Shown: piece by piece, positions 3,449-59,395 of the stretch
Layout: each line of letters starts with the position of its first letter
How positions within the stretch are numbered: the stretch's first letter is position 1
Assembly: GCA_963847225.1 (NCBI GenBank)
Contig: CAWJYZ010000003.1
Span: 153,512-217,511 of the forward strand
Length of the DNA: 64,000 nt
Reading direction: 5' to 3'
DNA from: an uncultured bacterium
GTDB lineage: Bacteria > Chloroflexota > Dormibacteria > Aeolococcales > Aeolococcaceae
The notes under the pieces: model-generated
What the model saw: the letters and a program-made list of their open reading frames with translations, nothing else
The model's database searches: none
What the model was told of the DNA's origin: nothing
Position numbers and translations under genes: made by a program

Positions 3449-4437
3449 TCGAAGCCCCGGAGCGGCTCGCCCACCCGGTCGACCCGCGCACCATGCACCG
3501 CGCCCGGGTCCGCGCCGTGGCTTCGGCAATCGCCTCTGACGTCGATCCGATCCGGAAGTTCGAGGCCGGGCGCGAGGTCCCCCTTCGGCGCAGCGCTCGG
3601 CGACGTCGAACTGGGACGGCACCGTCCGCGCCGGCCCCGCGGGGCCGCGACCGCCGCCTCCTCCTCGCGGCGTTCATCCTCGTCGCCGAGGTGGTGACGC
3701 TCGCCGTCCTCCTCACCGGGCCGCTGTTCCGCGTCCACGGGCTGACCGTGACCGGCACCCGCCTTCTCACCACGGAGCAGGTGACGGCGGCGGCGAGGGT
3801 GGGGAGGGGGAGCGTTTTTAGCCTGAATGCCGGCGCCGTATCCGCGCGTGTCAGCCGTCTCCCCTGGGTGCAGTCGGCGAACGTCAGCGTCGCCCTCTCC
3901 GGACGGGTCACCATCGCGGTCACCGAGCGCGCGCCGATGATCCGGGTCGTGCGCGCCGGCCGCGAGTATGCGGTGGCCTCCGACGGGGCTCAGCTTTGGC
4001 TCTCCTCGGCTCAGGAGGAGGCCCTCTCGAATGTGCCCCTCCTCATCGACCTCCGTCCCGCCGCCCTGCGCACGCCGATGAGCGCCTCGCTCGCCGACAC
4101 CCTCGGCCGCGCCGCCCTGGAGCTTCCGCGGCTGCTCGGCGTTCGAGTGGTGGCGTACGAGTGGGGCGCCCAGGCCCAGCTCTCGCTGTGGACCTCGGCG
4201 GGCTGGCAGGCGGTCCTCGGTGACCTCTCCGTCCCGGGCGCGCTCAGCGCGGTACCAGCTCAGCTCGGGGCCCTCAGCGCCCTGCGCTCTGACCTCGACT
4301 TCTCGAACCCCGCCCATCCGCACGTCGGGCGTCCCTTCGGCTACGTCAACCTCGCCGACCCCGCCGCGCCGGCGGTGGGGGGGAGGCCGGGTATCCCCGG
4401 GACGGTGAGCGCGGCCCTGACCTCGACCTCCGCCTGA
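3445..4437 (+). CDS. ftsQ: cell division protein FtsQ/DivIB (POTRA domain)
   Basis: 330 aa. A basic N-terminus is followed by one TM segment (LLLAAFILVAEVVTLAVLL). The POTRA-like region (VTGTRLLTTEQV...NVSVALSGRVTIAVTERAP) sits directly after ddl. Confidence 0.75.
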   Translation: MIEAPERLAHPVDPRTMHRARVRAVASAIASDVDPIRKFEAGREVPLRRSARRRRTGTAPSAPAPRGRDRRLLLAAFILVAEVVTLAVLLTGPLFRVHGLTVTGTRLLTTEQVTAAARVGRGSVFSLNAGAVSARVSRLPWVQSANVSVALSGRVTIAVTERAPMIRVVRAGREYAVASDGAQLWLSSAQEEALSNVPLLIDLRPAALRTPMSASLADTLGRAALELPRLLGVRVVAYEWGAQAQLSLWTSAGWQAVLGDLSVPGALSAVPAQLGALSALRSDLDFSNPAHPHVGRPFGYVNLADPAAPAVGGRPGIPGTVSAALTSTSA

Positions 4438-4529
4438 CCACCCACGCCGGCAGCGCCGAGCCGCGCGGTGCGGAGCGAGGATCAGCCGGGGGATGCACTT
4501 CACCGGGGAATCCATCGACGTCATAGGGT

Positions 4530-4558
4530 TTGACATCAAACGCTTAGATATCTAAAAT
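4530..4558 (+). promoter_or_regulatory. consensus sigma70-type promoter (TTGACA-17 bp-TAAAAT) upstream of the MFS pseudogene
   Basis: TTGACA at 4530-4535, a 17-nt spacer, then TAAAAT at 4553-4558. This sits in an unusually AT-rich stretch of a roughly 70% GC genome. It is followed by a stem-loop (AGCCCTTC...GAAGGGCT at 4559-4588), an AGGAGG ribosome-binding site, and the ATG at 4605. Confidence 0.6.
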
Positions 4559-4604
4559 AGCCCTTCGAGAGCCCCAGCGAGAAGGGCTGCAGGAGGTGAC
4601 GGCC

Positions 4605-5292
4605 ATGACGGGAGTCGTCTCGAGACCGCGGGAGGGGGCGGACCGGCGCCGCTGGTTGGCCCTCGTGTTCATCGCCCTCGCCCAGCTGCTACAGCCCACT
4701 CCAGGCGGGCCTCGCCTTCCTTCCCATGACCGTCGCCTCGCAGTCGGCCTGGCTCATCGCCCGCCGCCTCATGCCGCGGGTGCGGCCGCGCCATCTCGTC
4801 GGTCCCGGGCTCCTCGCCGCCGCCATTGGGATGCTTCTCCTCACCCAGCTGCACGCGGGGAGCGGCTACTTCGCGCAGGTCCTCCCCGCGGAGCTTCTCC
4901 TCGGCGCGGGGCTCTCCTGCGCCATGGTGCCGGCATTCAGCCTCGCCACCCTGGGGGCGGAGATGCGCCAGGCCGGGGTGGCCTCGGCCGCGGTGATGAC
5001 GGCGCAGCAGGTGGGCGGCTCGATCGGCACCGCCCTTCTCAACACGGTCGCCGCGGGCACCACGGCCGCCTATCTGATCGGCCACGGCGCGGGTGCGGCG
5101 GCGCAGCTGACCGCGCTCATCCACGGCTACACGGCGGCCACCGCCTGGGGTGGCGGCTTCCTTCTCGCCGGTGGCGCGGCCGCCCTCCTCCTCATCGACG
5201 CGCCGCGTCCGGCGGCGCAGCATGGGGCGGAGCGGCCGGAGCAGAGGCTCCAGCGCCCGGGTGCGACCGAGGCGCTCCGCGAGTCCGCGTGA
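4605..5292 (+). pseudogene. MFS (DHA2/EmrB-QacA-like) transporter with internal deletion and frame change
   Basis: Frame 0 (4605-about 4695) encodes an MFS N-terminus (RRRWLALVFIALAQLLQ). Frame +1 from about 4700 to 5292 encodes the C-terminal third (LQAGLAFLPMTVASQSAWLIARRLMPRVRP...GGSIGTALLNTVAAG). That C-terminal part aligns closely to the intact paralog at 30530..32059 (LAAGLTFLPQTLAIAVGSQVSSRLIPRLGARP...GGSLGLAVLATLAAD). About 265 aa (TM2 to roughly TM9) are missing. Confidence 0.7.
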
Positions 5293-5311
5293 TCAGGAGG
5301 GAGATGACGTC

Positions 5312-5824
5312 ATGAGCACAGCGCAGAGCTCGCCGGGATCGCGCCGGCCGCTGGGCCGGCGCATCCAGCGGCGCTTCTTCCGCGTCGTCAATATCGGGAT
5401 GCGGCGGATCCTCGGCCTTCCCTTCCGGACGCCGATGAGCGGCCGGCTCATGCTCCTGCATCTCACCGGGCGGAGGACCGGCCGCCTCCACCTCCAGCCG
5501 GTGAGCTACGTCCGTGACGGCGAGACCCTGCTGACCCCGGGGGGAGGGAATTGGAAGCTGAACCTCGTGGAGGGCCAGCCGGTCCCGGTGCAGCTGGAGG
5601 GGAGGGCGCGCACGCTGCGTCCCGAGATGGTCCGCGACGCGGACACGATCGAGCGCCTCCTTGGTGTCATGACCAGGTCCAACCCCATGGTGAGCCGCTT
5701 CGTGGGCATGCGCCGGGGTCCCGACGGCCGCCTGGACCGCGCCGCGCTGGAGCGGGCCATGGCCCACGGGTTCGTCATCGTCCGCTGGCATCCGGAGGCG
5801 GAGGGCACCGGCCCCTCCCGGTGA
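5312..5824 (+). CDS. deazaflavin-dependent nitroreductase family (Ddn/DUF385-like) protein
   Basis: 171 aa from the ATG at 5312, with a GGAGG ribosome-binding site at 5295-5303. The sequence pattern (LLHLTGRRTGRLHLQPVSYVRDGETLLTPGGGNWKLNLVEGQPVPVQLEGRARTL) is typical of small F420/FMN-binding split-barrel nitroreductase-family proteins. The family call is by motif memory only. Confidence 0.5.
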   Translation: MSTAQSSPGSRRPLGRRIQRRFFRVVNIGMRRILGLPFRTPMSGRLMLLHLTGRRTGRLHLQPVSYVRDGETLLTPGGGNWKLNLVEGQPVPVQLEGRARTLRPEMVRDADTIERLLGVMTRSNPMVSRFVGMRRGPDGRLDRAALERAMAHGFVIVRWHPEAEGTGPSR

Positions 5825-6188
5825 TCTCACGGCTGGACACGCCGGGCGGCTGGCCAGTCGGGGAGCTGCCGCGGACGAGATCGTGCGGGCCCTCGGCAGG
5901 CACCTCCGCGTCTACCTGGTGTCGACAAGGTGGTCAGCCGGTCAATGGCTCTGACCTCCGCCCGTTGGCGGGTCGGCTCATTACTTCGCGGCCTTCACGC
6001 GTTGGTTGCAGTAGGTGACATTCCAGTTGCACGTGCCCGACCGCGTCCCGATCACCCGGGGCTGGTTCCTGGGGTGCTCGGCTGGCGTCGCAGTCCAGCG
6101 GTAGTCGGGGAGCCGGCGGGGAGGCCATGGAGCAGAGGGTGGCATCGAGGCGGGGAAGTCACGGGATCGCGGCCGCAGACTGGACCCG

Positions 6189-7076
6189 CTAGCGGCGGCC
6201 CTCCCAGGGCCGCGCCGCGAGCAGAGCCGAGAGGATGGCGCGCGTCGCGGGGGAACGGTTCATGGTGTAGAAGTGGATGCCCGGTGCCCCGGCGCCGAGC
6301 AGCTCCGCGCACTGGAGGGTCGACCAGGCGACGCCCAGATCCATGACGGCGTGGGGGTCGTCGCGGCGCGCCTCGAAGGCGCTGATCAACTCCCCGGGGA
6401 TCTTGACCTGCAGCCGGGCGATGAAGCCGTGAAGCTGCGCAACGCTGGTGATGGGCATGATGCCGGGGATGATGGGGGCGGTGATGCCCGCCTTGCGGGC
6501 GGCGGCCACGAAGTCGAAGTAGGCACGGTTGTCGTAGAACAGCTGGGTGATGAGGTAGGCCATCCCCGCTTCGACCTTCTCGCGCGTCCAGCGCAGCTCA
6601 TCGGCCAGGGAGGTGGTCTCGAGGTGGACCTCCGGATAGCAGGCGCCACCCACGCAGACGTCGTACTGCTCGCGAATGAGGCGGGCCAGCTCGGAGCCGT
6701 GGGACAGCCCATCCGGGACGGGGGTGAAGACCGTCTCACCCCGCGGCGGGTCTCCGCGCAGCGCGAGGACGTTCTCGATGCCGCTGTCGACAATGCGGCG
6801 GAGCACCTCGTGGAGCTCGGCTCGGTTGGCTCCCACACAGGTGAGGTGAGCGACGGGAAGGATGTCGAGCCCGCGGCGGATCCGGGCCACGAGCTCGACC
6901 GTGCGCGTTCGGGTGCTGCCCCCAGCACCATAGGTGACCGAGACGAAACCCGGCTCCAGCTCCCGGAGCTGGGAGATGGTGGTGAAGAGGGCCGTCACGC
7001 CGTCGTCGTCCCGGGGTGGGAAGAACTCGAAGCTGAAGTTGGGACGCCCCTGCCCCAGGAGATCGATCACCCGCAT
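6189..7076 (-). CDS. metF: methylenetetrahydrofolate reductase
   Basis: 295 aa with a full-length MetF fold signature (VSVTYGAGGSTRTRT, LTCVGANRAELHEVL, HFYTMN). Confidence 0.9.
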   Translation of the reverse strand: MRVIDLLGQGRPNFSFEFFPPRDDDGVTALFTTISQLRELEPGFVSVTYGAGGSTRTRTVELVARIRRGLDILPVAHLTCVGANRAELHEVLRRIVDSGIENVLALRGDPPRGETVFTPVPDGLSHGSELARLIREQYDVCVGGACYPEVHLETTSLADELRWTREKVEAGMAYLITQLFYDNRAYFDFVAAARKAGITAPIIPGIMPITSVAQLHGFIARLQVKIPGELISAFEARRDDPHAVMDLGVAWSTLQCAELLGAGAPGIHFYTMNRSPATRAILSALLAARPWEGRR

Positions 7077-14725: not shown

Positions 14726-16069
14726 TCAGGCGGGCGGACCGGCGGCGAGGGTGATGGACGTCGTGTGCTGCGTCCCGGAGGCGTCCATCCAGCCGAGCTG
14801 GATGGTCTGGTCAGGGTGGTCGCCCTTCAGGGCGGTGGAGAGGTCACCGACGCCGGTGATGGCCGTGCCGTTCACGCTCACGATGACGTCGCCGGCCTGG
14901 AGCCCGGCCCGCGCCGCCGGCGATCCGGGGATCACCTGGGCGATGAGCGCGCCCCCGCTCGGAGATGCCACCGACGGATTCGCGTCCTGCACCTCCACGC
15001 CGATGAGCGGGCCCGAGCCTCCAATGACGACGTTTCCGCTCGCCGCGCCGCTCTGGATCTGATGAACGATGCTCATCGCGGTGTCGATGGGGATGGCGAA
15101 GCCGACGGTGCTGCTGATCCCGGTCCCGGAGGCGACGGGGGCGCCGGAGGAGGAGCCGGCGGTGTCCATGCCCACGACCTTCCCGGCGGCGTCGACGAGC
15201 GGACCTCCGGAGTCCCCGGGAACGATGTCCGCGGCCAGCTGGATGGCGCCGTTGAGCGTCTCCGAGGTGGCGCCGTCGCTCGCCGTCACCGTCTGATCGA
15301 GGGCGGTGACGGTGCCGGCGACGACGGCCGGGCTACCCCCTCGTCCGTAGGCGTTGCCGAGGGCCACCACCTGATCGCCGACCTGGAGGGAGGACGAATC
15401 GCCGATGGGAGCGGCCCTCAAGGTCGGGGCGTTCTCGATCTGGAGGAGAGCCACGTCGTCGGTCGCGTCATAGCCCAGCACCTTGGCCGAGTAGGTCGGA
15501 CCCTGACCGTCCACCTGGGCGGTGATGTTGGTGGCGCCGTCGATCACGTGGTTGTTGGTGAGCACCTCGCCGCTCGAGGTGATGATGATCCCGGTGCCTG
15601 CTGCCGGCGAGCCGTTGATGACGTCCTTGATGTCGACGACAGAGGGGTCGATCGCGGCGGCGATGGTGGAGGCGTTGGCGCTCCCCCCACCGGTGGATGG
15701 CGAGCCGCTCGGGCTCTGCCCTCCCCGCAGGGCCAGGCCGATGCCCGCGCCCACCCCGCCGGCGGCGAGGGCGACCGCCACGCCGCCGGCGAGCATCGCC
15801 GCCAGCAGGCGCCGGCGATGGCGGGGCGGCCGGGGCGCCGCCGCCGGATGGCCCGGCGGCGGTGGATAGGGAGGCGGATAGGGAGGCCCCCAGAAGGGGG
15901 GGCCCCAGGTGGGGGGACCCCAGCTCTGCTCAGGCGGGGACCATGCCGGGGGGTCGCCAGCCCCCGGTGCGGGTGGGGGAGGCGCGGCCCACGATTCCCA
16001 CGCGGCACCGGCGTCGGAGGGCTGGCCGGCGGTCTCGGGCGGTTCGTTGGTGCTCGGTGTCTCAGTCAT
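14726..16069 (-). CDS. htrA: HtrA/DegP-family trypsin-like serine protease with PDZ domain, proline-rich N-terminus
   Basis: Catalytic triad context is present (TNNHVI, DVALLQ, GDSGGPLVD), with a C-terminal PDZ domain. The N-terminal roughly 90 aa are Pro/Trp-rich (PPYPPPYPPPPGHP), followed by a TM helix. Confidence 0.85.
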   Translation of the reverse strand: MTETPSTNEPPETAGQPSDAGAAWESWAAPPPPAPGAGDPPAWSPPEQSWGPPTWGPPFWGPPYPPPYPPPPGHPAAAPRPPRHRRRLLAAMLAGGVAVALAAGGVGAGIGLALRGGQSPSGSPSTGGGSANASTIAAAIDPSVVDIKDVINGSPAAGTGIIITSSGEVLTNNHVIDGATNITAQVDGQGPTYSAKVLGYDATDDVALLQIENAPTLRAAPIGDSSSLQVGDQVVALGNAYGRGGSPAVVAGTVTALDQTVTASDGATSETLNGAIQLAADIVPGDSGGPLVDAAGKVVGMDTAGSSSGAPVASGTGISSTVGFAIPIDTAMSIVHQIQSGAASGNVVIGGSGPLIGVEVQDANPSVASPSGGALIAQVIPGSPAARAGLQAGDVIVSVNGTAITGVGDLSTALKGDHPDQTIQLGWMDASGTQHTTSITLAAGPPA

Positions 16070-16234
16070 CTCTCGTCAACCTCATCTGCATCACGAGACG
16101 AAGCCTAGGAGGGACATGCTTTCAAGCTCATGACGCTGGTGCGGGGGATGGCGCACCGATCGGGGCGCGCGGCGGTTCCGCGGCTCGGGAGGGCGGTCGG
16201 AGGCTGGGTCCGCCACGGGCTCCATCTGGTGGAG

Positions 16235-16993
16235 ATGGCCAGAGGGGAAGCGGCGAGGGATCGGAAGCACGGCGAGCCCGCGAACCCCGAGACTCGGCTC
16301 GTGGAGGCCACGATCGCGGAGCGCCTGGAGGTCGTGCGCGGAGCCATCGCCGCCGCCGCCTCGCGGGCCGGACGTGACCCCGCCTCGATCCGCCTGGTGG
16401 CCGTCACCAAGACCGTGGACCCGGTGCGGATCGCCGCGGCCATCAGCACCGGCGTCACTGAGATTGGCGAGAACCGTGTCCAGGAGGCCCTTTCCAAGCA
16501 GCCGGATGTCGTCCCCGGGGTGCGCTGGCACCTCGTCGGTCACCTGCAGAGCAACAAGGCAGCCCTCGCCGCGCAGCTCTTCGACACGGTCCACTCCCTC
16601 GACGGCGTGCGGGTCGGAGAGGCGCTGGATCGGCGGCGGGAGGCGGGGCGCGACCCCATCGAGGCGCTCGTCGAGGTGGACTACACGGGCATCGCCGGAC
16701 GCACCGGGATCGCTCCGGAGGAAGCGGCCGCGCTCCTGCGCTCTCTCGCCGCCTGCAGCCGCCTCCGCCTCGCTGGCCTCATGACCATCGCGCCCTTCGG
16801 CGACGAGGAGGCAGCGCGTGCAGCCTTCCGCAGCCTTCACCAGCTCCGGGACCGGCTCGAGGTGGAGGTGGAGATGCCCCTGCCCGAGCTCTCCATGGGG
16901 ATGAGCGACGACTTTGAGCTCGCCATCACAGAGGGGGCCACGATGGTCCGCCTGGGCCGGATCATCTTCGGTGAGCGTCCACCGGTAGCGTGA
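16235..16993 (+). CDS. yggS: YggS-family pyridoxal phosphate homeostasis protein
   Basis: PLP-binding alanine racemase-like barrel with the Lys-containing VAVTKT motif and HLVGHLQSNKA. The start is uncertain: ATG at 16235 or GTG at 16301, while the ORF track begins at 16130. Confidence 0.8.
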   Translation: MARGEAARDRKHGEPANPETRLVEATIAERLEVVRGAIAAAASRAGRDPASIRLVAVTKTVDPVRIAAAISTGVTEIGENRVQEALSKQPDVVPGVRWHLVGHLQSNKAALAAQLFDTVHSLDGVRVGEALDRRREAGRDPIEALVEVDYTGIAGRTGIAPEEAAALLRSLAACSRLRLAGLMTIAPFGDEEAARAAFRSLHQLRDRLEVEVEMPLPELSMGMSDDFELAITEGATMVRLGRIIFGERPPVA

Positions 16994-17072
16994 GTCCCCG
17001 TAGGGATCGACGTGATCCTCGGGGGTAGGCGCAGGGGGGCGCAGGCCCCCTGCTCGGTATCCTTGGCCGGCA

Positions 17073-19980
17073 ATGGTCCGCGCAACACGATTCGCCGAGG
17101 TGGATAGCCGCGCGCACCTTCCCGAGGGAGAGCGCGTCATCCTCGATCTCTGGAAGCGCACCGACGTCTTCCGGCGCAGCCTCGAGCTGCGCAAGGACGG
17201 GCCGCCCTATGTCTTCTACGAGGGTCCGCCGACCGCCAACGGAGCGCCGGGGCTCCACCACGTCGAGGCGCGGTCCTTCAAGGACCTCTTTCCCCGCTAC
17301 CACTCCATGCGGGGGCGCTTTGTCGAGCGCAAGGGGGGGTGGGACACCCATGGTCTCCCGGTGGAGCTGGAGGTCGAGCGGAAGCTCGGGATCAATGGGA
17401 AGCGACAGATCGAGGAATACGGCGTGGCCCGCTTCAACGAGCTCTGCCGGCGGTCGGTCCTCGAGTACATCGACGACTGGGAGGCGCTGACCGACCGGAT
17501 GGGCTTCTGGATCGACGTGCGCCATCCCTACCGGACCCTGGACAGCACCTACATGGAATCGGTGTGGTGGAGCCTCAAACAGCTCTGGGAGCGCGACCTC
17601 CTCTATCGGGGCTACAAGGTCGTCCCCTACTGCCCGCGCTGCCAGACCTCCCTCTCGTCGCACGAGCTCTCGCTCGGATACCAGGACGACGTGCCCGATC
17701 CCTCCGTCTACGTCAAGTTCAAGCTCACCGGGGATGACGGGAGCTCGCTGCTCGCCTGGACCACGACCCCCTGGACACTCCCCGGCAACGTGGCCCTCGC
17801 TGTGCACCCGGACGCCGCCTATGTCACGGTGGAGCAGAAAGGGGAGAGGCTGATCCTGGCTCGGGACCGCCTCGAGGTTCTCGAGGGTCCCTACGAGATC
17901 GTCGCCGAGCTGCCGGGACGCGATCTGGTGGGCCGCAGCTATGAGCCTCTCTTCACCGACATGCTGCCCGAGGGCCGGGCCTTCGTCGTCCTCGCCGCCC
18001 CCGAGCTGGTGTCGCTGGAGGAGGGGACCGGCGTGGTGCACACGGCGGCCGCCTACGGGGAGGCGGACCTGGGCCTCTGTCAGCGCGAGGGAATCGCCAT
18101 CCGTCACGTCGTCGGCCTCGACGGCCGTTTCCTGGAGGGACAGAGCCGCTACCGCGGCCTCTTCGTCAAGGAGGCGGACCCCAGGATCGTCGCCGACCTC
18201 CAGGCGGAGGGCCGGCTCTACCGGGCGGGGGAGATCCGCCACTCCTATCCCTTCTGCTGGCGCTGCGACACTCCGCTCCTCTACTACGCGCTCAACTCCT
18301 GGTTCATCCGCACCACGGCCCTCAAGGCCCAGCTCATCGCCAACAACGCGAGCGTGCGCTGGCAGCCGGCCCACGTCCGCGAGGGCCGCATGGGCAACTG
18401 GCTCGAGAACCTCGTCGACTGGAACCTCTCACGGAGCCGCTACTGGGGGACGCCGCTCCCCATCTGGGAGTGCGAGGGCTGCGACGCCAAACGATGCGTT
18501 GGCAGCACCGCTGAGCTCGGCCTCAGCACCGACGACGATCTGCACAAGCCTGGCATCGACGAGGTCACGCTGCCCTGTCCGAGCTGTGGCGGGTTCATGC
18601 GGCGCGTCTCCGACGTCATCGACGTCTGGTACGACAGCGGCGCCATGCCCTTCGCCCAGCACCACTATCCCTTCGAGAACCAGGAGCTTTTCAGCCGCCG
18701 CCTTCCGGCCGACTTCATCTGCGAGGCGATGGACCAGACGCGGGGCTGGTTCTTCTCTCTGCTCGCCGAGAGCACGCTCCTCTTCGCCCAGCCCGCCTAC
18801 CGCAACGTCATCTCGCTGGGCCTGGTGCTGGGCAAGGACGGCCGGCGGATGAGCACGCGCCTGCGCAACGCGCTCGATCCGATGAAGACCCTGGAGGAGT
18901 TCGGCGCCGACGCCACCCGCTGGTATTTCTACAGCGCGGTCACCGCGGGGAGCGACTACAAGGTGGGACCCGAGCTCGTCCGCGACGTGGTCCGCCGCTT
19001 CCTGCTCACCCTCTGGAACACCTACAAGTTCTTCTGCGACTACGCCCGCGTCGACGGTTGGGATCCCGAGGCTCCGGCTCCGCCGGTGCGACAGCGGCCC
19101 GAGCTCGACCGCTGGTGCCTCGCCCGCCTCGGAGAGTGCGTCACCGGGGTTGGCGAGGCCCTCGACGGCTACGACGCCACCCAGGCCACGCGCCTCATCG
19201 AGGCCTACGTCGAGGACCTCTCCAAGTGGTACGTGCGCCGCTCCCGGCGCCGCTTCTGGAAGTCCGCGGAGCCCACGGATGCCGACAAGCGCTCCGCCTA
19301 CGCGACCCTGTACACGGCGCTCACCACCCTGGCGCGGCTCATCGCCCCCTTCATGCCCTTCATCAGCGAGCGCATGCACCGCAACCTCACCGGCCACGAG
19401 AGCGGCGATGCGCTGGCCGGCGCACCCGAACTCGGTGCACCTCACCGACTACCCGGAGGCGGACCTGGCGTGGGCGGACGCGGCGCTGGTCACGGAGATG
19501 GCGAGGCTGCGGCGTCTCGTCGAGGACGGTCTCGGCGCCCGCGAGACGGCGGGCATCGGTGTCCGCCAGCCGCTGCCCCTGGCGACGGTCCGCGGCCGGA
19601 GCTTGCCCGCGGAGCTCGAGGCCATCTTCGCCGAGGAGCTCAACGTCAAGGCCGTCGGCTACGCGACCCCCGGCGAGGGTGAGCACGACTCCGTCACCCT
19701 GGACACAACGATCACCGACGCCCTTCACCTCGAGGGGATCGTCCGCGAAGTGTCGCGCAAGGTCAATGAGCTGCGCCGTCAAGCCGGGCTCGCCCTCGAC
19801 GACCGCATCCAGCTCCTCATCGAGGCTGACGGCGACGTCCGCCGCGCGGTCGAATTCCACCGCCAGCACCTCATGGCGGAGATCCTCGCGACGGCAATCG
19901 ATTTCGGGCGCCGGGAAGCGCTCAGCGAGTGGTCGGGGAAGCTGCGCGGTGAGCCCTGCTGGCTGGGCGTCGTGCGGTGA
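17073..19980 (+). CDS. ileS: isoleucine--tRNA ligase (type 2), reading frame interrupted near 19400-19425
   Basis: HIGH motif PTANGAPGLHH is present. The editing and catalytic core runs in frame 0 to about 19410. The C-terminal anticodon-binding tail (SVHLTDYPEA...DALHLEGIVREV...) continues in frame +1 to 19980. There is a deviant KMSKS motif (RMSTR) at about 18847. Confidence 0.85.
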
Positions 19981-20507
19981 CGGTGGAGGAGCACGCAGCG
20001 CCGGTATCCACCCATCTTCCGCGCCACTCCACCGCGCGGCAGCGCTACCTGGTGATGCTGCCCACCGCCGCCGTCGTCATTGGCCTGGACCACCTCACCA
20101 AGTGGCTCGTCTCCTCGAACCTCGCGGTGGGGCAGTCGGTGCCGGCCACTCGCGCCTTCGTCAACATCCACTACATCCGCAACTCGGGAGCCGCCTTCGG
20201 CATCTTCCCCCAGTTCAGTGCGCTCTACCTCGTGGTGGCGGCGATCGTCGCCGCCTACGTGCTCATCTACGGGCCGCGCATGGGGGGCGGGGGGTTCCGC
20301 CTCCTGGCCCTCGGCTGCCTCCTCGGCGGCGCCATCTCCAACGGCATCGACCGCCTCCTCAACGGCTACGTCGTCGACTTCATCGACTTCCATTTCTGGC
20401 TCTTCCAGATCTTCAACCTCGCCGACCTGGCCATCGTCGGCGCCATCCTGATCCTCGCCATCGACTTCACCTTCCGGGGCGCCGGCGGCAGGGGTTCGGA
20501 AAGGTGA
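19977..20507 (+). CDS. lspA: lipoprotein signal peptidase II
   Basis: 176 aa with the conserved LspA motifs NSGAAFG and FNLADLAIVGA. The GTG start overlaps the ileS stop, and the true start may be Met27 at 20055. Confidence 0.85.
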   Translation: MTVEEHAAPVSTHLPRHSTARQRYLVMLPTAAVVIGLDHLTKWLVSSNLAVGQSVPATRAFVNIHYIRNSGAAFGIFPQFSALYLVVAAIVAAYVLIYGPRMGGGGFRLLALGCLLGGAISNGIDRLLNGYVVDFIDFHFWLFQIFNLADLAIVGAILILAIDFTFRGAGGRGSER

Positions 20508-21406
20508 CGTTGGTGGCCGAGCTGGAGCGGCGTCCCCGGCTCGACGTCTGGCTGGCGCGCGAGCATGGCCTGAGCCGGCATGCCGCCCAGGAGCTCATCG
20601 CCGCCGGGGGCGTTCGGGTCAACGACCGTCCCGCCAACGCCGCCCGGCGCATCTCAGCCGGCGATCGTGTGAGCGTCACGCTCCCCGCCGCGAGGGAGCG
20701 GAGCGCTGCGGTGGAGGGGCCGGAGGTGAGCCTCTCCATCGTCTTCGAGGATGAGTGCCTCGCGGTTGTCGACAAGCCGGCGGGCCTCGTCGTGCATCCC
20801 GCTCCCGGGCACCCGCACGGCACCCTCGCCGACGGTCTGCGCCAGCACGGCGCCACCTGGTCCCTCTGGGGAGGTGTGGAGCGGCCGGGTATCGTCCACC
20901 GTCTGGACCGCGATACCTCGGGGCTCCTCGTCGTCGCCAAGTCGGAGGCGGCCCACCGCAACCTCTCCGCCCAGCTCGAACGGCGCCGCCTGACACGCGC
21001 CTACTGGGCTCTGGTGCATGGCGGCTTCGCCGAAGAGAGCGGCAGCATCGACGCCCCCATCGGCCGCAGCCCCCGCGACCGCAAGAGGATGGCGGTCGTC
21101 GAGACGGGGAGATCGGCGATCACCGACTTCCAGGTGAGCGCCCGCCATCCTCGCACCACCGAGCTGGACGTGCGGCTGCGCAGTGGTCGCACGCATCAGA
21201 TCCGGGTCCATCTGGCCTTCACCGGCCATCCCGTGGTGGGCGATCCCCTCTATGGACGCCGGCGTGACGGAGCGTCGCGACTCGCCCTGCACGCGCGGCT
21301 CCTCCGCTTCACGCACCCCGCTGACGGTCGCGAGCTGTCCTTTTCGTCACCCCTCCCCAGTGAGCTCACGGCCCTTCGCGAAGCGGCGCGGGAGGGCCGG
21401 CTCTGA
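20504..21406 (+). CDS. rluD: RluA-family 23S rRNA pseudouridine synthase (RluD-like)
   Basis: An S4 domain is followed by the catalytic HRLDRDTSGLLVVAK motif and THQIRVHLA. The GTG start overlaps the lspA stop (GTGA). Confidence 0.85.
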   Translation: MTLVAELERRPRLDVWLAREHGLSRHAAQELIAAGGVRVNDRPANAARRISAGDRVSVTLPAARERSAAVEGPEVSLSIVFEDECLAVVDKPAGLVVHPAPGHPHGTLADGLRQHGATWSLWGGVERPGIVHRLDRDTSGLLVVAKSEAAHRNLSAQLERRRLTRAYWALVHGGFAEESGSIDAPIGRSPRDRKRMAVVETGRSAITDFQVSARHPRTTELDVRLRSGRTHQIRVHLAFTGHPVVGDPLYGRRRDGASRLALHARLLRFTHPADGRELSFSSPLPSELTALREAAREGRL

Positions 21407-21408
21407 GC

Positions 21409-22014
21409 ATGGGGAACGCTGTCCAGCGACCGCGGCTCTTTGCCGGACCAGGACGGCTCGTCATCATCTCCGGTCCCAGCGGGGTGGGCAAGGACACCGT
21501 GCTCCGCGAGCTCTTCCGGATCGCGCCCTGGCTCAACTATTCGATCTCCTACACCACGCGGCCCCCACGTCCCGGGGAGGTGGACGGAAAGTCCTACTCC
21601 TTTGTCGATGAGGCGGAGTTCGAGGCCCTGCGCGAGCGCCATGAGTTCCTGGAGTACGCGAGGGTGCACGGCCATTGGTACGGGACCTCGGAGAGACGCG
21701 TCCGAGAGAGCCTGGAACGCGGTGAGGACATCGTGCTCAAGATCGACGTCCAGGGGGCGGCCTGGATCCGCCCCCGGGTCGAGGGGGCCATCTTCATCTT
21801 CCTGCTCCCGCCGAGCCGCGAAGAGCTGCGCCGCCGCCTCGAGGAGCGCGCCACGGAGTCCGCGGAAAGCCTCGAGCTGCGCTGGGCCGCCGCCGAGGCC
21901 GAGCTCGGCGAGCGAGACCGCTACGATCATCGTGTCGTCAATGACGACGTGGAACGCGCCGCCCGCGAGATCCTCGCCATCGTCGAGCACAGCCGGCCGA
22001 AGGAGAGAGCGTGA
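21409..22014 (+). CDS. gmk: guanylate kinase
   Basis: P-loop ISGPSGVGKDT and the guanylate kinase signature YSISYTTRPPRPGEVDGKSY. Confidence 0.9.
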   Translation: MGNAVQRPRLFAGPGRLVIISGPSGVGKDTVLRELFRIAPWLNYSISYTTRPPRPGEVDGKSYSFVDEAEFEALRERHEFLEYARVHGHWYGTSERRVRESLERGEDIVLKIDVQGAAWIRPRVEGAIFIFLLPPSREELRRRLEERATESAESLELRWAAAEAELGERDRYDHRVVNDDVERAAREILAIVEHSRPKERA

Positions 22015-23332
22015 CAGCTGAGGATCAGCCGGTCGGCGGGGAGCTCGAGGGCCGCCGCATCCTCGTCGGGATCGGCGGTAGCGTCGCCGCCTACAAGGCC
22101 GCCGATCTCGTCGTCCTCCTGCGCCGGCGCGGCGCCTCGGTGCGGGTGGCGATGACCCCCTCGGCGACCCGCTTCATCGCCCCCCTCACCCTGCGCAGCC
22201 TCTCCGCCAACCCGGTCGTCGCCGACCTCTTCGAGCCCACCGAGACGGGCCACGGCATGGAGCACCTCTCGCTGGCCCAATGGTCGGAGCTGCTGGTGAT
22301 CGCCGCCGCCTCCGCCAACCTCATCGCGCGTCTCGCCCTCGGCCTGGCCGACGACGCCGTCACCGCCACCGCGCTCGCCTCCCCCGCCCCGCTCCTCATC
22401 GCCCCGGCCATGGAGACGGCGATGTGGGAGCATCCGGCGACAGCGCAGCACGTGGCCACGCTCCGCGACCGGGGAGCGGTCCTGGTCGGTCCGGAGACGG
22501 GCCGGCTGGCGAGTGGCAGGGAGGGCTTGGGACGCATGGCGGACCCCGCGGCAATCCTGGACGCCGCGGTGAGGCTCCTCCGAGAGCGGCTTCCCCCGGC
22601 CTCGTCGTGAGAGCGGTGCCGCGCCCAGCTGCCGCAGGCCGTCCTGGGGACGCCAGCTCGGGCGGCTCTCTCGCCGGCCTCCGTGTCGTCGTGACCGCCG
22701 GCGGCACCCGGGAAGCCATCGATCCGGTGCGCTTCATCGGCAATCGCTCGAGCGGCAAGATGGGCAACGCGCTCGTCGCCGCCTGCCTCGAGGCCGGGGC
22801 CACCGTCGAGCTCATCACGGCGGCTTCTCCTCCGCCCCCCGCCCCAGGCCTTCGGGTGAGCGCCGTGGAAAGTGCGGCCCAGATGCAGCGTGCCGTCTGG
22901 GAGGCCCTGACGCGAGCCGATGTCCTGCTGATGGCGGCCGCCGTCGCCGATTACCGGCCCCGGGAGGTCGCCCCCCGGAAGCTCAAGAAGAGCACCTCTC
23001 CGCTCCGCATCGAGCTGGAGCCCACGGAGGACATCCTCGCCTCCCTCCGTGAGCATCCGCAGCGGGCGGGCAGCCTGGTGGTGGGCTTCGCCGCCGAGAC
23101 CGACGAAGCGGAGGCGAATGCCGCCGCCAAGCTGCGCGAGAAGGGGATCGACCTCATCGTCCTCAATGACGTCTCCCAGCCAGGCATCGGGATGGGCAGC
23201 GACGACAACGCCGTGACGGTCCTGGATGGCGGCGGCGTCGTGGCCGTCACCGGACGGATGCCGAAGGCCGACATCGCACGCCGCCTGGTGGCCCTCGTCG
23301 CCGAGCGCGTGCCGCCCACGGGAGGCGGCTGA
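22011..23332 (+). CDS. coaBC: bifunctional phosphopantothenoylcysteine decarboxylase / phosphopantothenate--cysteine ligase, frame interrupted near 22600
   Basis: The CoaC flavoprotein domain occupies 22011-22610 (ILVGIGGSVAAYKA). The CoaB domain (LRVVVTAGGTREAIDPVRFIGNRSSGKMG) lies in the -1 frame from about 22660 to 23332. A C5 homopolymer at about 22594-22598 is the likely indel site. Confidence 0.8.
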
Positions 23333-23383
23333 GGGGAAGAAGAGGCTGAGGGAGGGGGAGTGTCTTCTCGGAGCGCTTTCGAG

Positions 23384-23410
23384 GAATGAGGAACGCTCTG
23401 TTCCTCATTC
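23384..23410. repeat. perfect 11-bp-stem hairpin GAATGAGGAAC-gctct-GTTCCTCATTC, member of a small palindromic repeat family
   Basis: An exact inverted repeat seen directly in the sequence. The same GTTCCTCAT(T) core recurs twice in tandem at 49619-49677. Confidence 0.7.
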
Positions 23411-23741
23411 GAGCAAGCGCCACCGCAAAGGGCGTGTGCCTCCCGCCCCCCAGCCGTCCGGCGGTGGGCGCGCCGTCGGGAGGGCGGCGTTGATCAGAAG
23501 CACACGCTGGATCGTGGTCACGAAATCGTCGGCGAGCGCCGCCTGCGCGGCCCGACCGAGCGCCGCCGACACGGGGTTCGAACCTCCGCTCGTCGACGGG
23601 CAGCCGGCACGCGCATTGCCGCCGGCCCTCGCGCATGCCAAGATGTAGGGGCTCGAACGGATGCTCCCACAGTTTGTCGTGGCCACTTGGGAAGAGGGCA
23701 GGGTGGGTGGCCTGGGTCCGCCGGATGGGACGAGGTGGAGG

Positions 23742-25836
23742 ATGACGGGGACGCTGGTAGCACCGGCACCGGTGCCGGAGGGCGACACCAGGACGGCCGG
23801 CGAGGGGGCCGCCGACGGGCACGCCACGCCCTCCCCGCGCTACGCGGACGTGGTCCCTGACACCCGCGCCCTCCTGCCCCAGGAGCGCTACACCTACCTG
23901 GTCCCAGAGGGGATGCGGGAGGAGGTCCGGGCTGGCGTGCGCGTTCGAGTGCCATTTGGCCAGCGCACGGTGCCCGGTCTCGTCATTGCGGTCTCGGCCA
24001 GGTCCGACCACACCGAGGTCCGTCCCCTGGACGCCGTCCTCGATCCCGAGCCCCTCCTCGGCGAGAACCTCCTCGGCCTCGCCGAATGGATCGCGGCCCG
24101 CTACTGCGCGCCACTCGCCGAGGTCCTCAAGGCCATGGTGCCCAAGGGTGCGCGCCCCGCTCGACCGCCGAGCGGACGCCGGCGCGGACCGCGCTCGGAG
24201 TCCGCCGCCCTCGCCGCCGCCCGGGCCACCCACCGGCGCAGCCCTCCTCCCAGGCTGACCCCGGCGCAGGCGGCGGCCGCTCGTCCGCTCCTCGAGGCCA
24301 TCGAGGCCGGCGTCCACCGGCGGGTGCTCCTCCACGGGGTGACGGGGAGCGGGAAGACGGAGGTCTACCTCGCCGCCATCGACGCCGCGCTGCGCCGGAG
24401 GAGGCAGGCGATCTGCCTCGTTCCCGAGATCGCCCTCACCCCCCAGATGATCCGCCGCTTCGCGGTCCGGTTTCCGGGCCGCCTGGCCGTCATCCACTCG
24501 GCGCTCACCGACGCCGAGCGCGCGCTCGAATGGTCCCGCGCCCGCACCGGTGGCATCGACGTCGTGGTCGGCTCGCGAAGCGCCGTCTTCGCGCCGCTCC
24601 CTCACCTCGGGGTGGTCGTCGTCGACGAGGAGGACGCCTCGGCCTACAAGCAGGACCGGATCCCGCGCTATCACGCCGTCGACGTCGCCCTCGAGCTGGG
24701 TCGGAGGGCCGGCGCTCCGGTGGTGCTGGGCAGCGCCACCCCTCGGGTGGAGACCTACTTTCAGGCCCACACCGGGGGGCTCGAGCTCACCACCATCGAG
24801 GCGCGGATCACCGGCAGGCCGCTGCCCCCCATCGAGGTGGTCGACCTGCGCGAGGAGCTTCGCGCCGGCAACCGCGGCCCGCTCTCCGAGACGCTCATCC
24901 GCGCCCTGGACCAATGCCGTGCCGAGGGCGGTCAGTCGATCCTCTACCTGAACCGGAGGGGCACCGCGACGGTCGTGCTCTGCCGCTCGTGCGGGGTGCC
25001 GCTGGAGTGCCGGAACTGCAGCGTCTCCCTTGTCTACCACGCCGGTCGGCGGCGCTGCGACTGCCATTACTGCGGCGCCTCGCGCGATCTCCCGGAGCGC
25101 TGTCCGTCCTGCGGCTCGGCGGCGATCCGTGGGCTGGGCATGGGAACGGAGCGGCTAGAGGCGGAGGTCACCGCCCTCTTCCCGGGCATGCGCCTCCTCC
25201 GCATGGACCGCGACACTGTGCAGCGGCGCGACGCGTATTTCGAGATCTACGAACGGTTTCGGGGCGGCCATGCGGACTGCCTCATCGGCACCCAGATGGT
25301 GGCCAAGGGATGGGACCTGGCGCGGGTGCGATTGGTCGGCATCGTCAACGCCGACACCTCGCTCCACTTCCCCGATTACCGGAGCGGCGAGGTGACGTTC
25401 TCCCTTCTGACCCAGGTGGCGGGGCGCGCGGGCCGGGGCGACGAGCCAGCGCGGGTGATCCTGCAGACCTATAGTCCCGAGCACTACGCGGTCCGTCATG
25501 CCGTGTCGCACGATTACCGGGGGTTCGCCCATGATGAGATCCGGGTGCGTCGCGACCACCGCTTTCCCCCCTATGCGCGCCTCGTCACCTGCACCGTCGA
25601 GTCAGGCCGATGACGGCGTCGCCGAGGCCGCCGCGCGGCGGTGCGCCGCGGATCTCTCTGCTATCCTCGGCAGCGGCGCCGGGCTCGACGTCCTCGGCCC
25701 GACCCCCGCCTTCCTGCACCGCCTTCGTGGCCAGCATCGCTGGCAGGTGACGGTGCGGGGGACGGCGATCGAGAGGGCGTTTCGACATCTGCCGAAAGGC
25801 CGCGGCTGGAGCATCGACGTCGACCCCGCCATGTAG
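23742..25836 (+). CDS. priA: primosomal protein N' (replication restart helicase PriA), frame interrupted near 25600
   Basis: The 3'BD N-terminus, Walker A HGVTGSGKTEVYL, and a Cys4 zinc-binding region (CRSCGVPLECRNCSVSLVYH...CDCHYCG...CPSCGS) are all present. The C-terminal tail (AFLHRLRGQHRWQVTVRG...DVDPAM) continues in frame +1 (25498-25836) after a stop at 25613. The start is either the ATG at 23742 or at 23661. Confidence 0.85.
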
Positions 25837-25877: not shown

Positions 25878-26399
25878 GTGACCCATCTTCACATCGTCAC
25901 CGTCGACGAGGGCAATCCGGTACTGCGCCGCAAGGCACCGCGCGTGGCACGCGTCGACAACTCCATTCGCCGGCTCATGGACGACATGATGGAGACCATG
26001 GTGGCGGCGCCCGGCGTCGGTCTTGCCGCCCCGCAGGTCGACGTCTCCCTCCGGGTCATCACCCTCAAGGTCGACAACCAGCTCTATCACCTCGCCAATC
26101 CCGAGATCATCAAGCAGCAGGGAGAGCAGACGGGGTACGAGGGATGCCTCTCCATCCCGGGCATGGTCGGTGAGGTCACCCGTGCCGAGAAGGTCGTCTG
26201 CAAGGCGCTCAGCAGAAGCGGCAAGCAGGTGCGTATCAAAGGCAGCGGCCTCCTGGCCCGCGCCATCCTGCACGAGATCGATCACCTCGACGGCATCCTC
26301 TTCACCGACCGGCTCACCGATCCCAGCACGCTGCGCCGGGTCGAGGAGATGACCGATGTCGAGGTGCAGGCGGTGGAGGGGGAGGTCGTGCCGGCATAA
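25878..26399 (+). CDS. def: peptide deformylase
   Basis: The GTG start at 25878 is preceded by AGGAG about 12 nt upstream. Def motifs GVGLAAPQV, EGCLSIPG and HEIDHLDG are present. Confidence 0.85.
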   Translation: MTHLHIVTVDEGNPVLRRKAPRVARVDNSIRRLMDDMMETMVAAPGVGLAAPQVDVSLRVITLKVDNQLYHLANPEIIKQQGEQTGYEGCLSIPGMVGEVTRAEKVVCKALSRSGKQVRIKGSGLLARAILHEIDHLDGILFTDRLTDPSTLRRVEEMTDVEVQAVEGEVVPA

Positions 26400-26516
26400 C
26401 CCTGCCACCGAAGGTCGGCGGGCGGCAGTTCGTCAGCGCGATCCTGCGGCGCAGCGCATCCAGCCGACCTCGGCGCGCACGCGGGCCGGCGCACGCGGCA
26501 AAGTAGCTGCTAGCCC

Positions 26517-27425
26517 ATGAGGATCGTCTTCTGCGGGACCGCCGAGTTCGCGGTGCCGAGCCTTCGAGCCTGCAACGCTCGGCACGAGGTCGTGGCCGCC
26601 GTGACGCAGCCGGCTCGTCGCGGCAGCCGGGGCCGTCCCGCGCCCCGCCCCGTGGCCGATGCCGCGGCGCAGCTCGGCATTGACGTGCTCCAGCCGGAGC
26701 GCATCCGAAGATCGGCCGCCGTCGAGGAGATCCTGAGGCTGGCTGCGGACGTTCTCGTCGTTGCCGCCTACGGACAGATCATCCCCGCCGAGCTCCTCGA
26801 CGGCCATCGCTGGGGCGGCGTCAATGTCCACGCCTCGCTCCTGCCGCGCTGGCGTGGCGCGGCGCCCGTGGCCCGCGCCATCCTCGCCGGTGACAGCGTG
26901 ACCGGGGTCTCGATCATGAGCATGGATGCGGGGCTCGACACCGGCTCCGTCTACACCCAGCGGCGGGTTGCGATCCAGAACCGGGCGACGACGCCGGTGC
27001 TCACCCAGGAGCTGGCGGTCGCCGGGGCCGAGGAGCTGGTCTCGGTGCTCGCCGCCCTCGAACGGGGAAGCGCCACCGCCGCGCCGCAGGCGCAGGAGGG
27101 GGTGAGCTATGCGCCCCGCCTCACGCGCCAGGACGGCCGTCTCGACTGGACGGCACGCACCGCCATCGCCATCGACCGGATGGTGCGGGCGCTCCAGCCC
27201 TGGCCCGGGGTGACCGGCCAGCTCGCCGGAAGCCCGGTTCGGCTGCTGGCCGGGGAGGTCTGCGGGGAGGCGGTGGCGCCGGAGGTCACACCGGGAAGCG
27301 TCGTGCGCACCGAAGGGGAATCGGTGCTGGTGGCCACCGCCGAGGGCATCTATCGGCTCGACACCGTCCAGCCCGCGGGGCGGCGAGTGATGAGCGCGGC
27401 AGCCTTCCTGCGCGGCCGGCGCTGA
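26517..27425 (+). CDS. fmt: methionyl-tRNA formyltransferase
   Basis: MRIVFCGTAEFAVPSL, with the formyltransferase core NVHASLLPRWRGAAP. It follows def. Confidence 0.9.
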   Translation: MRIVFCGTAEFAVPSLRACNARHEVVAAVTQPARRGSRGRPAPRPVADAAAQLGIDVLQPERIRRSAAVEEILRLAADVLVVAAYGQIIPAELLDGHRWGGVNVHASLLPRWRGAAPVARAILAGDSVTGVSIMSMDAGLDTGSVYTQRRVAIQNRATTPVLTQELAVAGAEELVSVLAALERGSATAAPQAQEGVSYAPRLTRQDGRLDWTARTAIAIDRMVRALQPWPGVTGQLAGSPVRLLAGEVCGEAVAPEVTPGSVVRTEGESVLVATAEGIYRLDTVQPAGRRVMSAAAFLRGRR

Positions 27426-27434
27426 GGCAGGGCG

Positions 27435-27911
27435 ATGCCGGCAAGACGACGACCCGAGGACCCGGTCCTCGCGCGCCACCGCCAGGCGAGCCACGAATAT
27501 CACCTGCTCGAGACGTTCGAAGCCGGCGTGGAGCTGGCCGGGACGGAGGTCAAGGCGCTCCGAGCCGGGCTCGCCCAGCTTCGCGAGGGTTACATCCGCA
27601 TCGAGAACGGGGAGGCCTGGCTGGTCGGGGTTCACATCGGCCAATACGCGGCGGGTAACCGCCAGAACCACGATCCCATCCGCCGCCGCCGGCTCCTGCT
27701 CCACGGGCGCGAGATCCGCTACCTCGATCAGCGAGCCCGTCTTGGGGGCTTCACCCTGATTCCGATCCGCCTCTATCTCAAGAACAATCACATCAAGTGC
27801 GAGATCGCCGTGGCGCGCGGCAAGAAGCTGTGGGACAAGCGGGAGGCGATCGCCGCCCGCGACGCTCAGCGCGCCATCGAGAGAGCCACCAGTCGGGCAC
27901 TTCGCGGCTGA
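27435..27911 (+). CDS. smpB: SsrA-binding protein
   Basis: 158 aa with canonical SmpB features (EAGVELAGTEVKALR...GYIRIENGEAWLVGVHI) and the basic C-terminal tail. Confidence 0.9.
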   Translation: MPARRRPEDPVLARHRQASHEYHLLETFEAGVELAGTEVKALRAGLAQLREGYIRIENGEAWLVGVHIGQYAAGNRQNHDPIRRRRLLLHGREIRYLDQRARLGGFTLIPIRLYLKNNHIKCEIAVARGKKLWDKREAIAARDAQRAIERATSRALRG

Positions 27912-27926
27912 TCGAGCCACGAACCG

Positions 27927-29153
27927 TCAGCTGGCCGCCAGGTCCCTCGCAGCGTCGGGGAGCGTCCGCTCCTCAGTGGAGCGGTTGTCGCGGTTGGCCC
28001 GGGTCTCCGGCACCACCCGCGCCGCCAGCTCGTCGATGGCGGCGCGCAGCTCGCGCAATCCCGTGCCGCGGGTCGCCGAGATGCGCAGGGCGCGGCAGCC
28101 GGCGATCTCCTCGAGGCCATCGACGACCGTGTCGAGGTGGGCGGCGTCGCGGCGGTCGCACTTGTTGGCGACGAGGAGTGTCGGCTGATCGCACCCCATC
28201 TGCGCCAGGGTGGTCAGAACGGTCCTGAGCTGGCCGGCGCACTCCGGATGGGAGACGTCGACGATGAGGGCGAGGAGATGTGCGCCCCTCACCTCCTCCA
28301 GGGTGGCGTTGAAGGCTTCGACGAGCTCGGTGGGAAGCGCCTGGATGAAGCCGACGGTGTCGGTGAGGATCAATCGCCGCCCAGAGGCCAGGCTCAGCAG
28401 CCGCGAGGTCGGGTCGAGAGTGGCGAAGAGGAGGTCGTCGGCGAGGACCTCGGAGTTGGTCAGGCGGTTGAGGAGGGTTGACTTGCCGGCGTTGGTGTAG
28501 CCGACGAGGGCGCAGGACGCGAGGGGGACGTCGCTCCGCGCCTGGCGGCGCGTCCGGCGCTGGCGCTCGAGGACCTGCAGCCGCTGGCGAAGCCGGGCGA
28601 TGCGCTGCCGGATGAGCCGGCGGTCGACCTCGATCTGGGTCTCCCCGGGGCCTCCACGCAGGCCCACGCCGCCACGCTGCCGCTCCAGGTGGCTCCAGCC
28701 GCCGGCGAGACGGGGCAGGAGATGTTCCAATTGGGCCATCTCCACCTGAATCTTCCCCTCCGCGGTCACCGCCCGGCGGGCAAAGATGGCGAGGATGACC
28801 TCGGTCCGGTCCAGGACCGGGACACCCCAGCGCTCCTCGAGATTGCGCTGCTGGCGGGGACTGAGGGGATCGTTGACCAGCACCGCCGGGCTCCCCAGCT
28901 CGGCGAGGCGGGCTGCGAGGGCGTCCACCGCCCCGCCGCGGAAGAAGGTCGCGGGATGCGGCTCGCGGACGGCCACCGCGCTGTGCTCGACGACGGTCGT
29001 CCCCAGCGTGCGGGCCAGCTCCTCCAGCTCGTCAAGCTGCACGTCGACGCGCTCGCGCCCTTCGCGCCCCTGGTAGGAGCCGAAGACGGCGACGTCGCGA
29101 AGAAGCTGGCCGATCCCGGGGTCGGCCCCGGTTCGGGGCGAGGTGCGTGCCAT
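27927..29153 (-). CDS. hflX: GTPase HflX
   Basis: An HflX N-domain is followed by G-motifs GYTNAGKSTLLN, DTVGF and NKCD. The start is taken at the internal Met, because the ORF-track N-terminal extension to 29861 is antisense to the phosphatase gene and non-homologous. Confidence 0.85.
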   Translation of the reverse strand: MARTSPRTGADPGIGQLLRDVAVFGSYQGREGRERVDVQLDELEELARTLGTTVVEHSAVAVREPHPATFFRGGAVDALAARLAELGSPAVLVNDPLSPRQQRNLEERWGVPVLDRTEVILAIFARRAVTAEGKIQVEMAQLEHLLPRLAGGWSHLERQRGGVGLRGGPGETQIEVDRRLIRQRIARLRQRLQVLERQRRTRRQARSDVPLASCALVGYTNAGKSTLLNRLTNSEVLADDLLFATLDPTSRLLSLASGRRLILTDTVGFIQALPTELVEAFNATLEEVRGAHLLALIVDVSHPECAGQLRTVLTTLAQMGCDQPTLLVANKCDRRDAAHLDTVVDGLEEIAGCRALRISATRGTGLRELRAAIDELAARVVPETRANRDNRSTEERTLPDAARDLAAS

Positions 29154-59258: not shown

Positions 59259-59395
59259 CTCTCCTCTGGGCAACCCCTGGCGAGTGTAGCGTGTCGAAAC
59301 TACGAAATGGCGCAGCCGATCCGGCCTCGGCAACGCAGCCTCGGATACCTTCTGGGCGCGACGGTACTCCGCTTCCGCGAGAATGTCGATCCCAC

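Follow-up and report, generated by a model that had tools for sequence, protein, structure and literature searches.

The stretch of DNA considered here, 64,000 nucleotides of a contig from an uncultured member of the Dormibacteria (GenBank assembly GCA_963847225.1, contig CAWJYZ010000003.1, positions 153,512 to 217,511; called the window below), contains ileS, the gene for isoleucyl-tRNA synthetase (IleRS), in two pieces that lie in different reading frames. This raises the question whether the organism carries a broken copy of an essential gene, whether a genuine shift of frame is bypassed, or whether the sequence itself is in error. The split is very probably an artefact, a one-base error of assembly or consensus, with the ileS of the cell intact. 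The organism would thus possess an ordinary type-2 ileS as found in Candidatus Dormibacterota and would make a normal IleRS of 968 amino acids. The biological weight of the lesion is accordingly small, since a normal ileS is almost certainly present in the organism. Its possible effect is on annotation: the sequence as written would be called an ileS pseudogene or a truncated protein of 869 amino acids without the tRNA-reading domain, which could lower completeness estimates or lead to false claims of gene loss in the Dormibacterota.

The frame break in ileS

The break of frame in ileS is well beyond chance. In the window, which has a G+C content of 71%, frame 0 reads ..GDALAGAP up to position 19427, and the conserved C-terminus NSVHLTDYP...GVVR* resumes in frame +1. 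Alignment of the frame-0 product with solved IleRS structures stops at residues 773-775 (..ERMHRNLT), both for the enzyme of T. thermophilus (1ile, E=1e-263) and for IleRS2 of Priestia megaterium (PmIleRS2; 8c8u, E=7e-244), and the translation of frame +1 from 19396 matches the IleRS2 C-terminus from residue 769 of 8c8u onward (KSVHLADYP, E=5e-15). The periodicity of third-position G+C (GC3) changes phase at about 19400, the values being 0.97 at positions with p%3==2 before this point and 0.95 at positions with p%3==0 after it. Removal of one base gives a protein of 968 amino acids, and a tblastn search with this repaired protein returns two abutting high-scoring segment pairs in adjacent frames, 17073-19430 and 19426-19977. 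Downstream of the break, 19429-19980 is open over 184 codons with no internal stop and with a GC3 of 0.91. The frame-0 tail (19431-19682) matched no Pfam family, and the high GC3 over this tail belongs to the other frame.

These structure matches, the GC3 phase and the tblastn segments bear out an earlier note on this DNA, which had placed the IleS core in frame 0 and the C-terminus in frame +1 up to 19980; its description of the frame-0 end as Gly/Arg-rich nonsense also holds for the 84 codons concerned. The site of the shift does lie within 19395-19430, as the note had proposed, but at base 19428 and codon 786 rather than near codon 780. Similarly, the conserved C-terminal region is in frame +1, but the anticodon-binding domain Anticodon_1 is not located wholly downstream of the shift: it occupies residues 679-836 of the repaired protein and straddles it.

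A second assembly of the locus and its relatives

An independent reconstruction of the locus without the extra base was found in a Logan contig of 2,074 nt from run ERR11594399 (L081), which was located via the exact product of lspA. L081 aligns to window positions 19208-21282 with 99.9% identity over 2,075 nt and differs from it at two places only. The first is the junction, where the window reads CCCGAACTCGG (19425-19435) and L081 reads CCC-AACTCGG, the G at 19428 being absent from L081 (in wider context, GCACCCGAACTCGG in the window and GCACCC-AACTCGG in L081). The second is position 19688, the adenine of a GACTC (GANTC) site, where the window has A and L081 has C (Asp versus Ala). The junction in L081 lies in a single frame (...GDALAGAPNSVHLTDYP...) that runs to the ileS stop; the one open reading frame (ORF) reads ...HESGDALAGAPNSVHLTDYP...GVVR* across it, and the translation ...FISERMHRNLTGHESGDALAGAPNSVHLTDYPEADLAW...CWLGVVR* is obtained in one frame.

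Four further contigs of ERR11594399, found via SmpB, Gmk, YggS and an F420H2-quinone-reductase-like protein, cover 10.9 kb of the window (25960-28509, 21305-24201, 15544-17186 and 2695-6471). All four are 100% identical to it; they therefore come from the same strain and show that the assembly is clean elsewhere. Across the 12.9 kb compared there are one indel (G19428) and one substitution (19688) and nothing else; the assembly is not generally error-prone, with about one indel per 13 kb compared. Metagenome contigs from JGI that were scanned for either junction allele gave no match.

The relatives of the gene agree with L081. All 16 homologues that were aligned are continuous at the junction (..G[HFY]E.G.....[AVH][PA][DN]SVHLTDYP..), with the same spacing as in the repaired protein, and over the frame +1 stretch 19429-19980 identity to the nearest homologues is 69-75%. 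Divided by N-terminal divergence, C-terminal divergence comes to 1.36 +/- 0.19 for pairs that include the window and to 1.48 +/- 0.19 among intact homologues; this ratio lies within the intact range and therefore reveals no relaxed constraint after the shift. Among some 30 Dormibacterota ileS loci taken from GTDB species representatives, not one is shifted at the site equivalent to 19428, and the ileS-lspA context is common to the window and its relatives. The suggestion in the earlier note that an assembly indel had added one base is thus borne out by the absence of G19428 from L081, by the length of the repaired protein, which equals that of the nearest homologues, and by the continuity of the homologues themselves.

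A few Dormibacterota ileS genes are disrupted at other positions, namely in L025 and L031, both nanopore metagenome-assembled genomes (MAGs) of Microflora Danica (MFD), and in L019 and L032. The copy in L031 has one extra base in GGACCCG at about 4795, that in L032 (fen_879) carries three indels (2671, 3848, 4069), and L019 misses about 97 codons of ileS (4426-4483).

Table 1. Coordinates of the ileS pieces and of other features in the window
Feature	Position	Strand	Remarks
ORF, IleRS product	17073..19682	+	869 aa, frame 0
ORF overlapping the 869-aa ORF	19150..19980	+	frame +1; carries SVHLTDYPEADLAW
ileS codons 1-785, frame 0	17073..19427	+	catalytic core, CP1 editing domain, first part of anticodon-binding domain
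Extra base G	19428	+	between CCC (Pro785) and AAC (Asn786), giving an apparent +1 frameshift
ileS codons 786-968 and stop, frame +1	19429..19980	+	rest of Anticodon_1, ARD2 without INS insertion, ARD3/PF19302 C-terminal domain
Spurious frame-0 read-through tail, ELGAPHRLPGGGPG	19428..19682	+	84 Gly/Arg-rich codons; stop 19680-19682
ATG in frame +1, MRWPAHPNSVHL	19408..19410	+	sole feature possibly supporting a separate C-terminal piece
lspA (signal peptidase II)	19977..20507	+	PF01252; 4-nt overlap with ileS stop; conserved ileS-lspA arrangement
Beta-class N6/N4 DNA methyltransferase	33460-34407	-	PF01555, 151 bits; M.RsrI E=7e-24; CcrM E=7e-20

Origin of the extra base

An error of this kind would most likely stem from long-read assembly; the length of the source contig, 1,460,957 bp, suggests that long reads were used. 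The sequence around the junction points to a more specific cause. In most homologues the junction reads CCC GAC TCG GTG (P-D-S-V) and contains GACTC, where the window has G-A-ACTC and L081 has A-ACTC. Both places at which the window and L081 disagree thus fall in a GACTC (19687-19691) or a putative one (19425-19433). A twin frameshift is found in the ileS of the nanopore MAG L025, about 95 codons upstream of this position; it lies at the identical 12-mer CGAACTCGGTGC (L025:5088-5099), for which relatives have ATC GAC. Logan contigs also end at such sites: L081 stops inside the GACTC at 21279-21283, a second contig (L083) begins 22 nt past that same site, and L083 in turn stops inside the GAGTC at 24198-24202. 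Two of ten contig ends thus fall inside GANTC, of which there are 92 sites in the 64 kb, for which the probability, estimated post hoc, is about 0.002. The window has fewer GANTC sites than expected, 92 where mononucleotide composition predicts 169 and a first-order Markov model 312. When the 61 GAANTC/GANTTC sites of the window were tested for a switch of coding phase, 19428 alone was found to switch within a gene.

The pattern at GANTC suggests a methylation-linked consensus error in long reads. The true sequence at 19428 is probably GACTC, and the reads may be ambiguous between G and A there, due either to N6-adenine methylation or to a G/A strain polymorphism; a consensus step that kept both bases (GA) would add one nucleotide. 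Methylation in bacteria reportedly makes both A-to-G and G-to-A errors more frequent in nanopore reads, and nanopore-only MFD metagenomes were subjected to one round of Medaka polishing to reduce indel errors. The window itself encodes a beta-class DNA methyltransferase (Table 1). This protein has a DPPF motif, and its gene adjoins a DinB/MST-family gene, with no restriction enzyme recognised beside it.

The case resembles the single-base indels known from nanopore MAGs in that one inserted base turns a conserved gene into two ORFs in adjacent frames on a contig of megabase size. The likeness extends to the sites: G19428 and 19688 both lie at GANTC, and L025 shows the same change of GACTC to GAACTC elsewhere in its ileS. 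It differs from published methylation-linked errors, which are mostly A/G substitutions, in being an insertion, and the platform of the window assembly is presumed to be long-read. If the proposed cause were confirmed, it would represent a motif-specific and probably methylation-linked mode of error for which catalogues of long-read MAGs are worth screening.

Several points weigh against an artefact or against this particular cause. The comparison was made between assembled contigs, and the G could be a real allele of the strain that was assembled. Should ERR11594399 consist of the long reads behind the window assembly, L081 would offer independence from the assembler and none from the technology. 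Codon 786 is Asn (AAC) in L081 and Asp (GAC) in most homologues, so that the true residue may be either, and the inserted G is not an error of homopolymer length, the commonest type of long-read indel. As to the cause, the other ten GANTC sites in the 12.9 kb agree between the two assemblies, and the methyltransferase, assigned by family homology, may recognise another site. A further copy of CGAACTCGGTGC, the third (L031:1595), is unshifted, so that the 12-mer was rejected as a deterministic error motif and the link to the motif is statistical.

The alternative that survives best, although it is unlikely, is that the extra G is a real frameshift, either a recent null mutation or a segregating variant, and that IleRS ends after residue 785 without its anticodon-reading C-terminus. 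Either another ileS elsewhere in the genome would then keep the cell alive, or the allele would be transient and deleterious in the population. The G is, after all, present in the sequence as given, and the additional difference of L081 at 19688 means that two slightly different haplotypes may coexist. An intact version nevertheless occurs in the same population, in contigs otherwise 100% identical over 10.9 kb, and the location of both differences at GANTC, together with the breaking of Logan contigs at GANTC, argues for a technical cause. Two types of IleRS can coexist in one bacterium (PMC10485003), but no second ileS was found by tblastn in the window, the 64 kb of the genome that the search covered. 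The gene also shows a single lesion, with downstream conservation and codon bias undiminished and with the conserved ileS-lspA context of its relatives. The true pseudogene with a second ileS that the earlier note had considered is therefore not supported: there is neither an accumulation of lesions nor a second ileS in the 64 kb searched nor an excess of downstream divergence, the divergence ratio being in the intact range.

Very improbable is a shift that is real but bypassed, by +1 slippage of tRNA-Pro on CCC-G or by synthesis of a separate C-terminal polypeptide from the ATG at 19408; marginally less credible still is that a genuine G leaves slippage to ...APNSVHL... or a two-piece enzyme as the only source of IleRS. 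Either would mean that an uncultured phylum has an essential synthetase that is recoded or split. Formally, CCC with a G after it makes a slippery P-site, from which a slip would give ...APNSVHL..., the same protein as that of L081. The shift is, however, conserved in no relative, neither in the approximately 30 Dormibacterota loci nor in the 16 aligned proteins, and L081 provides a plain in-frame gene in the same population. The site CCC GAA contains no stop in frame and is not preceded by a Shine-Dalgarno-like GGAGG, folding of the downstream RNA is no stronger than that of shuffled sequence (z = 0.26), and no Rfam family matched. As in prfB-type programmed frameshifting, the written sequence would yield the full-length protein only through a +1 shift, but the combination that marks programmed +1 frameshifting, a conserved shift and a slippery codon with a stop or slow A site and a stimulator, is missing here: the shift is not conserved, the site has neither a stop in frame nor a Shine-Dalgarno-like stimulator upstream, and an in-frame allele exists in the population.

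A split enzyme fares no better. Naturally split aminoacyl-tRNA synthetases exist, for example the alpha/beta LeuRS of Aquifex, and the window resembles them in that one ORF holds the catalytic body and another the C-terminal tRNA-binding part. An ATG in the right frame precedes SVHL by seven codons. In contrast to such enzymes, the ORFs in the window share an overlap of more than 250 nt made up of junk read-through, neither a start nor a ribosome-binding site is conserved, and the relatives are all fused. The 84 junk codons by which the frame-0 ORF runs across the putative second gene do not suggest an evolved split; the 190-aa product from ATG 19408 is absent from the protein collection searched, and in L081 the ATG lies out of frame inside the continuous ORF.

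The repaired enzyme and the remainder of the window

With the extra base removed, the protein encoded by ileS can be placed as a type-2 IleRS. It scores 865.6 bits against the ileS equivalog TIGR00392 (cut-off 621.4) over residues 11-839, across the junction at 786. Its closest relatives among 5.8 billion proteins searched are IleRS proteins of Candidatus Dormibacterota (Dormibacteria) of 959-988 aa, the best being P0001 (82% identity, also 968 aa) and another being P0003 (80%); the truncated 869-aa ORF is present in the same collection as a singleton. The C-terminal architecture is that of type 2, with PF19302 at residues 867-953 and not IleRS1's zinc-binding domain. The mupirocin-resistance models MupA and MupB, which represent resistant IleRS2 enzymes, are the next-best NCBIfam models, each below its cut-off.

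The C-terminus aligns with PmIleRS2 residues 769-845 and 900-999, which leaves a jump over about 846-899 that corresponds to the INS subdomain, and the protein has 968 aa where PmIleRS2 has 1032. Most of INS (about 80 residues, PmIleRS2 851-925) is missing, at residues of about 846-870 in the repaired IleRS. According to a 2026 preprint, INS is optional in prokaryotic IleRS2 and was lost independently and repeatedly; judged by the lengths of the homologues, its loss here is a lineage trait. The frame +1 part retains the residues that align with R964 and L969 of the PmIleRS2 pocket that reads G34, and the R964A mutation of PmIleRS2 abolishes charging (2026 preprint). A real truncation would therefore be severe.

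The catalytic motifs deviate from the canonical ones. The HIGH motif is GLHH (17250-17261) and the KMSKS loop is RMSTR (18846-18860); the editing-site peptide WTTTPWT is present. Their degenerate appearance was considered as a sign of decay and rejected, since GXHH is lineage-wide and the KMSKR, KMSTR and RMSTR forms are graded in the nearest relatives. G-x-H occurs at the HIGH position in 115 of the 120 best homologues and A-x-H in three more. At the KMSKS position the series KMSKS (82), KMSKR (21), KMSKH (4), KMSKT (3), KMSTR (2) and RMSTR (2) tracks kinship to the window, with RMSTR in the window and P0003 and KMSTR in P0001. The forms RMSTR and KMSTR, which lack the second Lys, are confined to the window and its three closest relatives. 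A swapped GXHH motif in a subset of IleRS2 is compatible with catalysis and confers hyper-resistance to mupirocin (Brkic et al. 2023, PMC10485003), and a GLHH-type variant of HIGH is known to be functional only in IleRS2 (PMC10485003). The repaired protein resembles these GXHH enzymes (PMC10485003) in passing TIGR00392, in having the T. thermophilus and P. megaterium structures as the closest ones and in carrying GLHH for HXGH; it differs by its RMSTR loop and by the loss of most of INS, the comparison being one of sequence.

Other frame errors were sought with a hidden Markov model of GC3 periodicity and a segment scan over the whole window, and by all-against-all tblastn of 13-24 kb and 32 Dormibacterota loci. 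The tblastn screen found no other well-supported shift in window 13-24 kb, where 19428 stands alone, backed by 26 queries. The composition scans raised several other candidate frame changes, all of which resolved as gene boundaries or real features. The pairs fmt/smpB, Kelch-like/GNAT, hflX/histidine phosphatase and nrdR/PPOX were rejected as frameshifts, being merely neighbouring genes. Also rejected was coaC/coaB (22011-23332, + strand), a real split into two genes with a GTGA overlap that is identical in L083 and common to the closest relatives. The genes lie in different frames with a 4-nt overlap (22607-22610); in many Dormibacterota that are more distantly related, coaBC is one fused frame.

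A stretch without coding signal at 58249-59541 resolved as the Pro/Ala-rich N-terminal region of a ParA-like ATPase; this ParA/MinD-like protein (57396-59423, - strand) has an N-terminal region of about 400 aa without codon-position signal. A short gene of the major facilitator superfamily (MFS) at 4726-5292 was rejected as an assembly frameshift because it is identical in the independent contig L085. The MFS-like gene (188 aa, + strand) covers what in a DHA2-type transporter is the C-terminal half, and a TM1-like start, MTGVVSRPREGADRRRWLALVFIALAQLL, stands ahead of it in a different frame (4605-5292 in all); it looks like the remnant of an internally deleted transporter gene.

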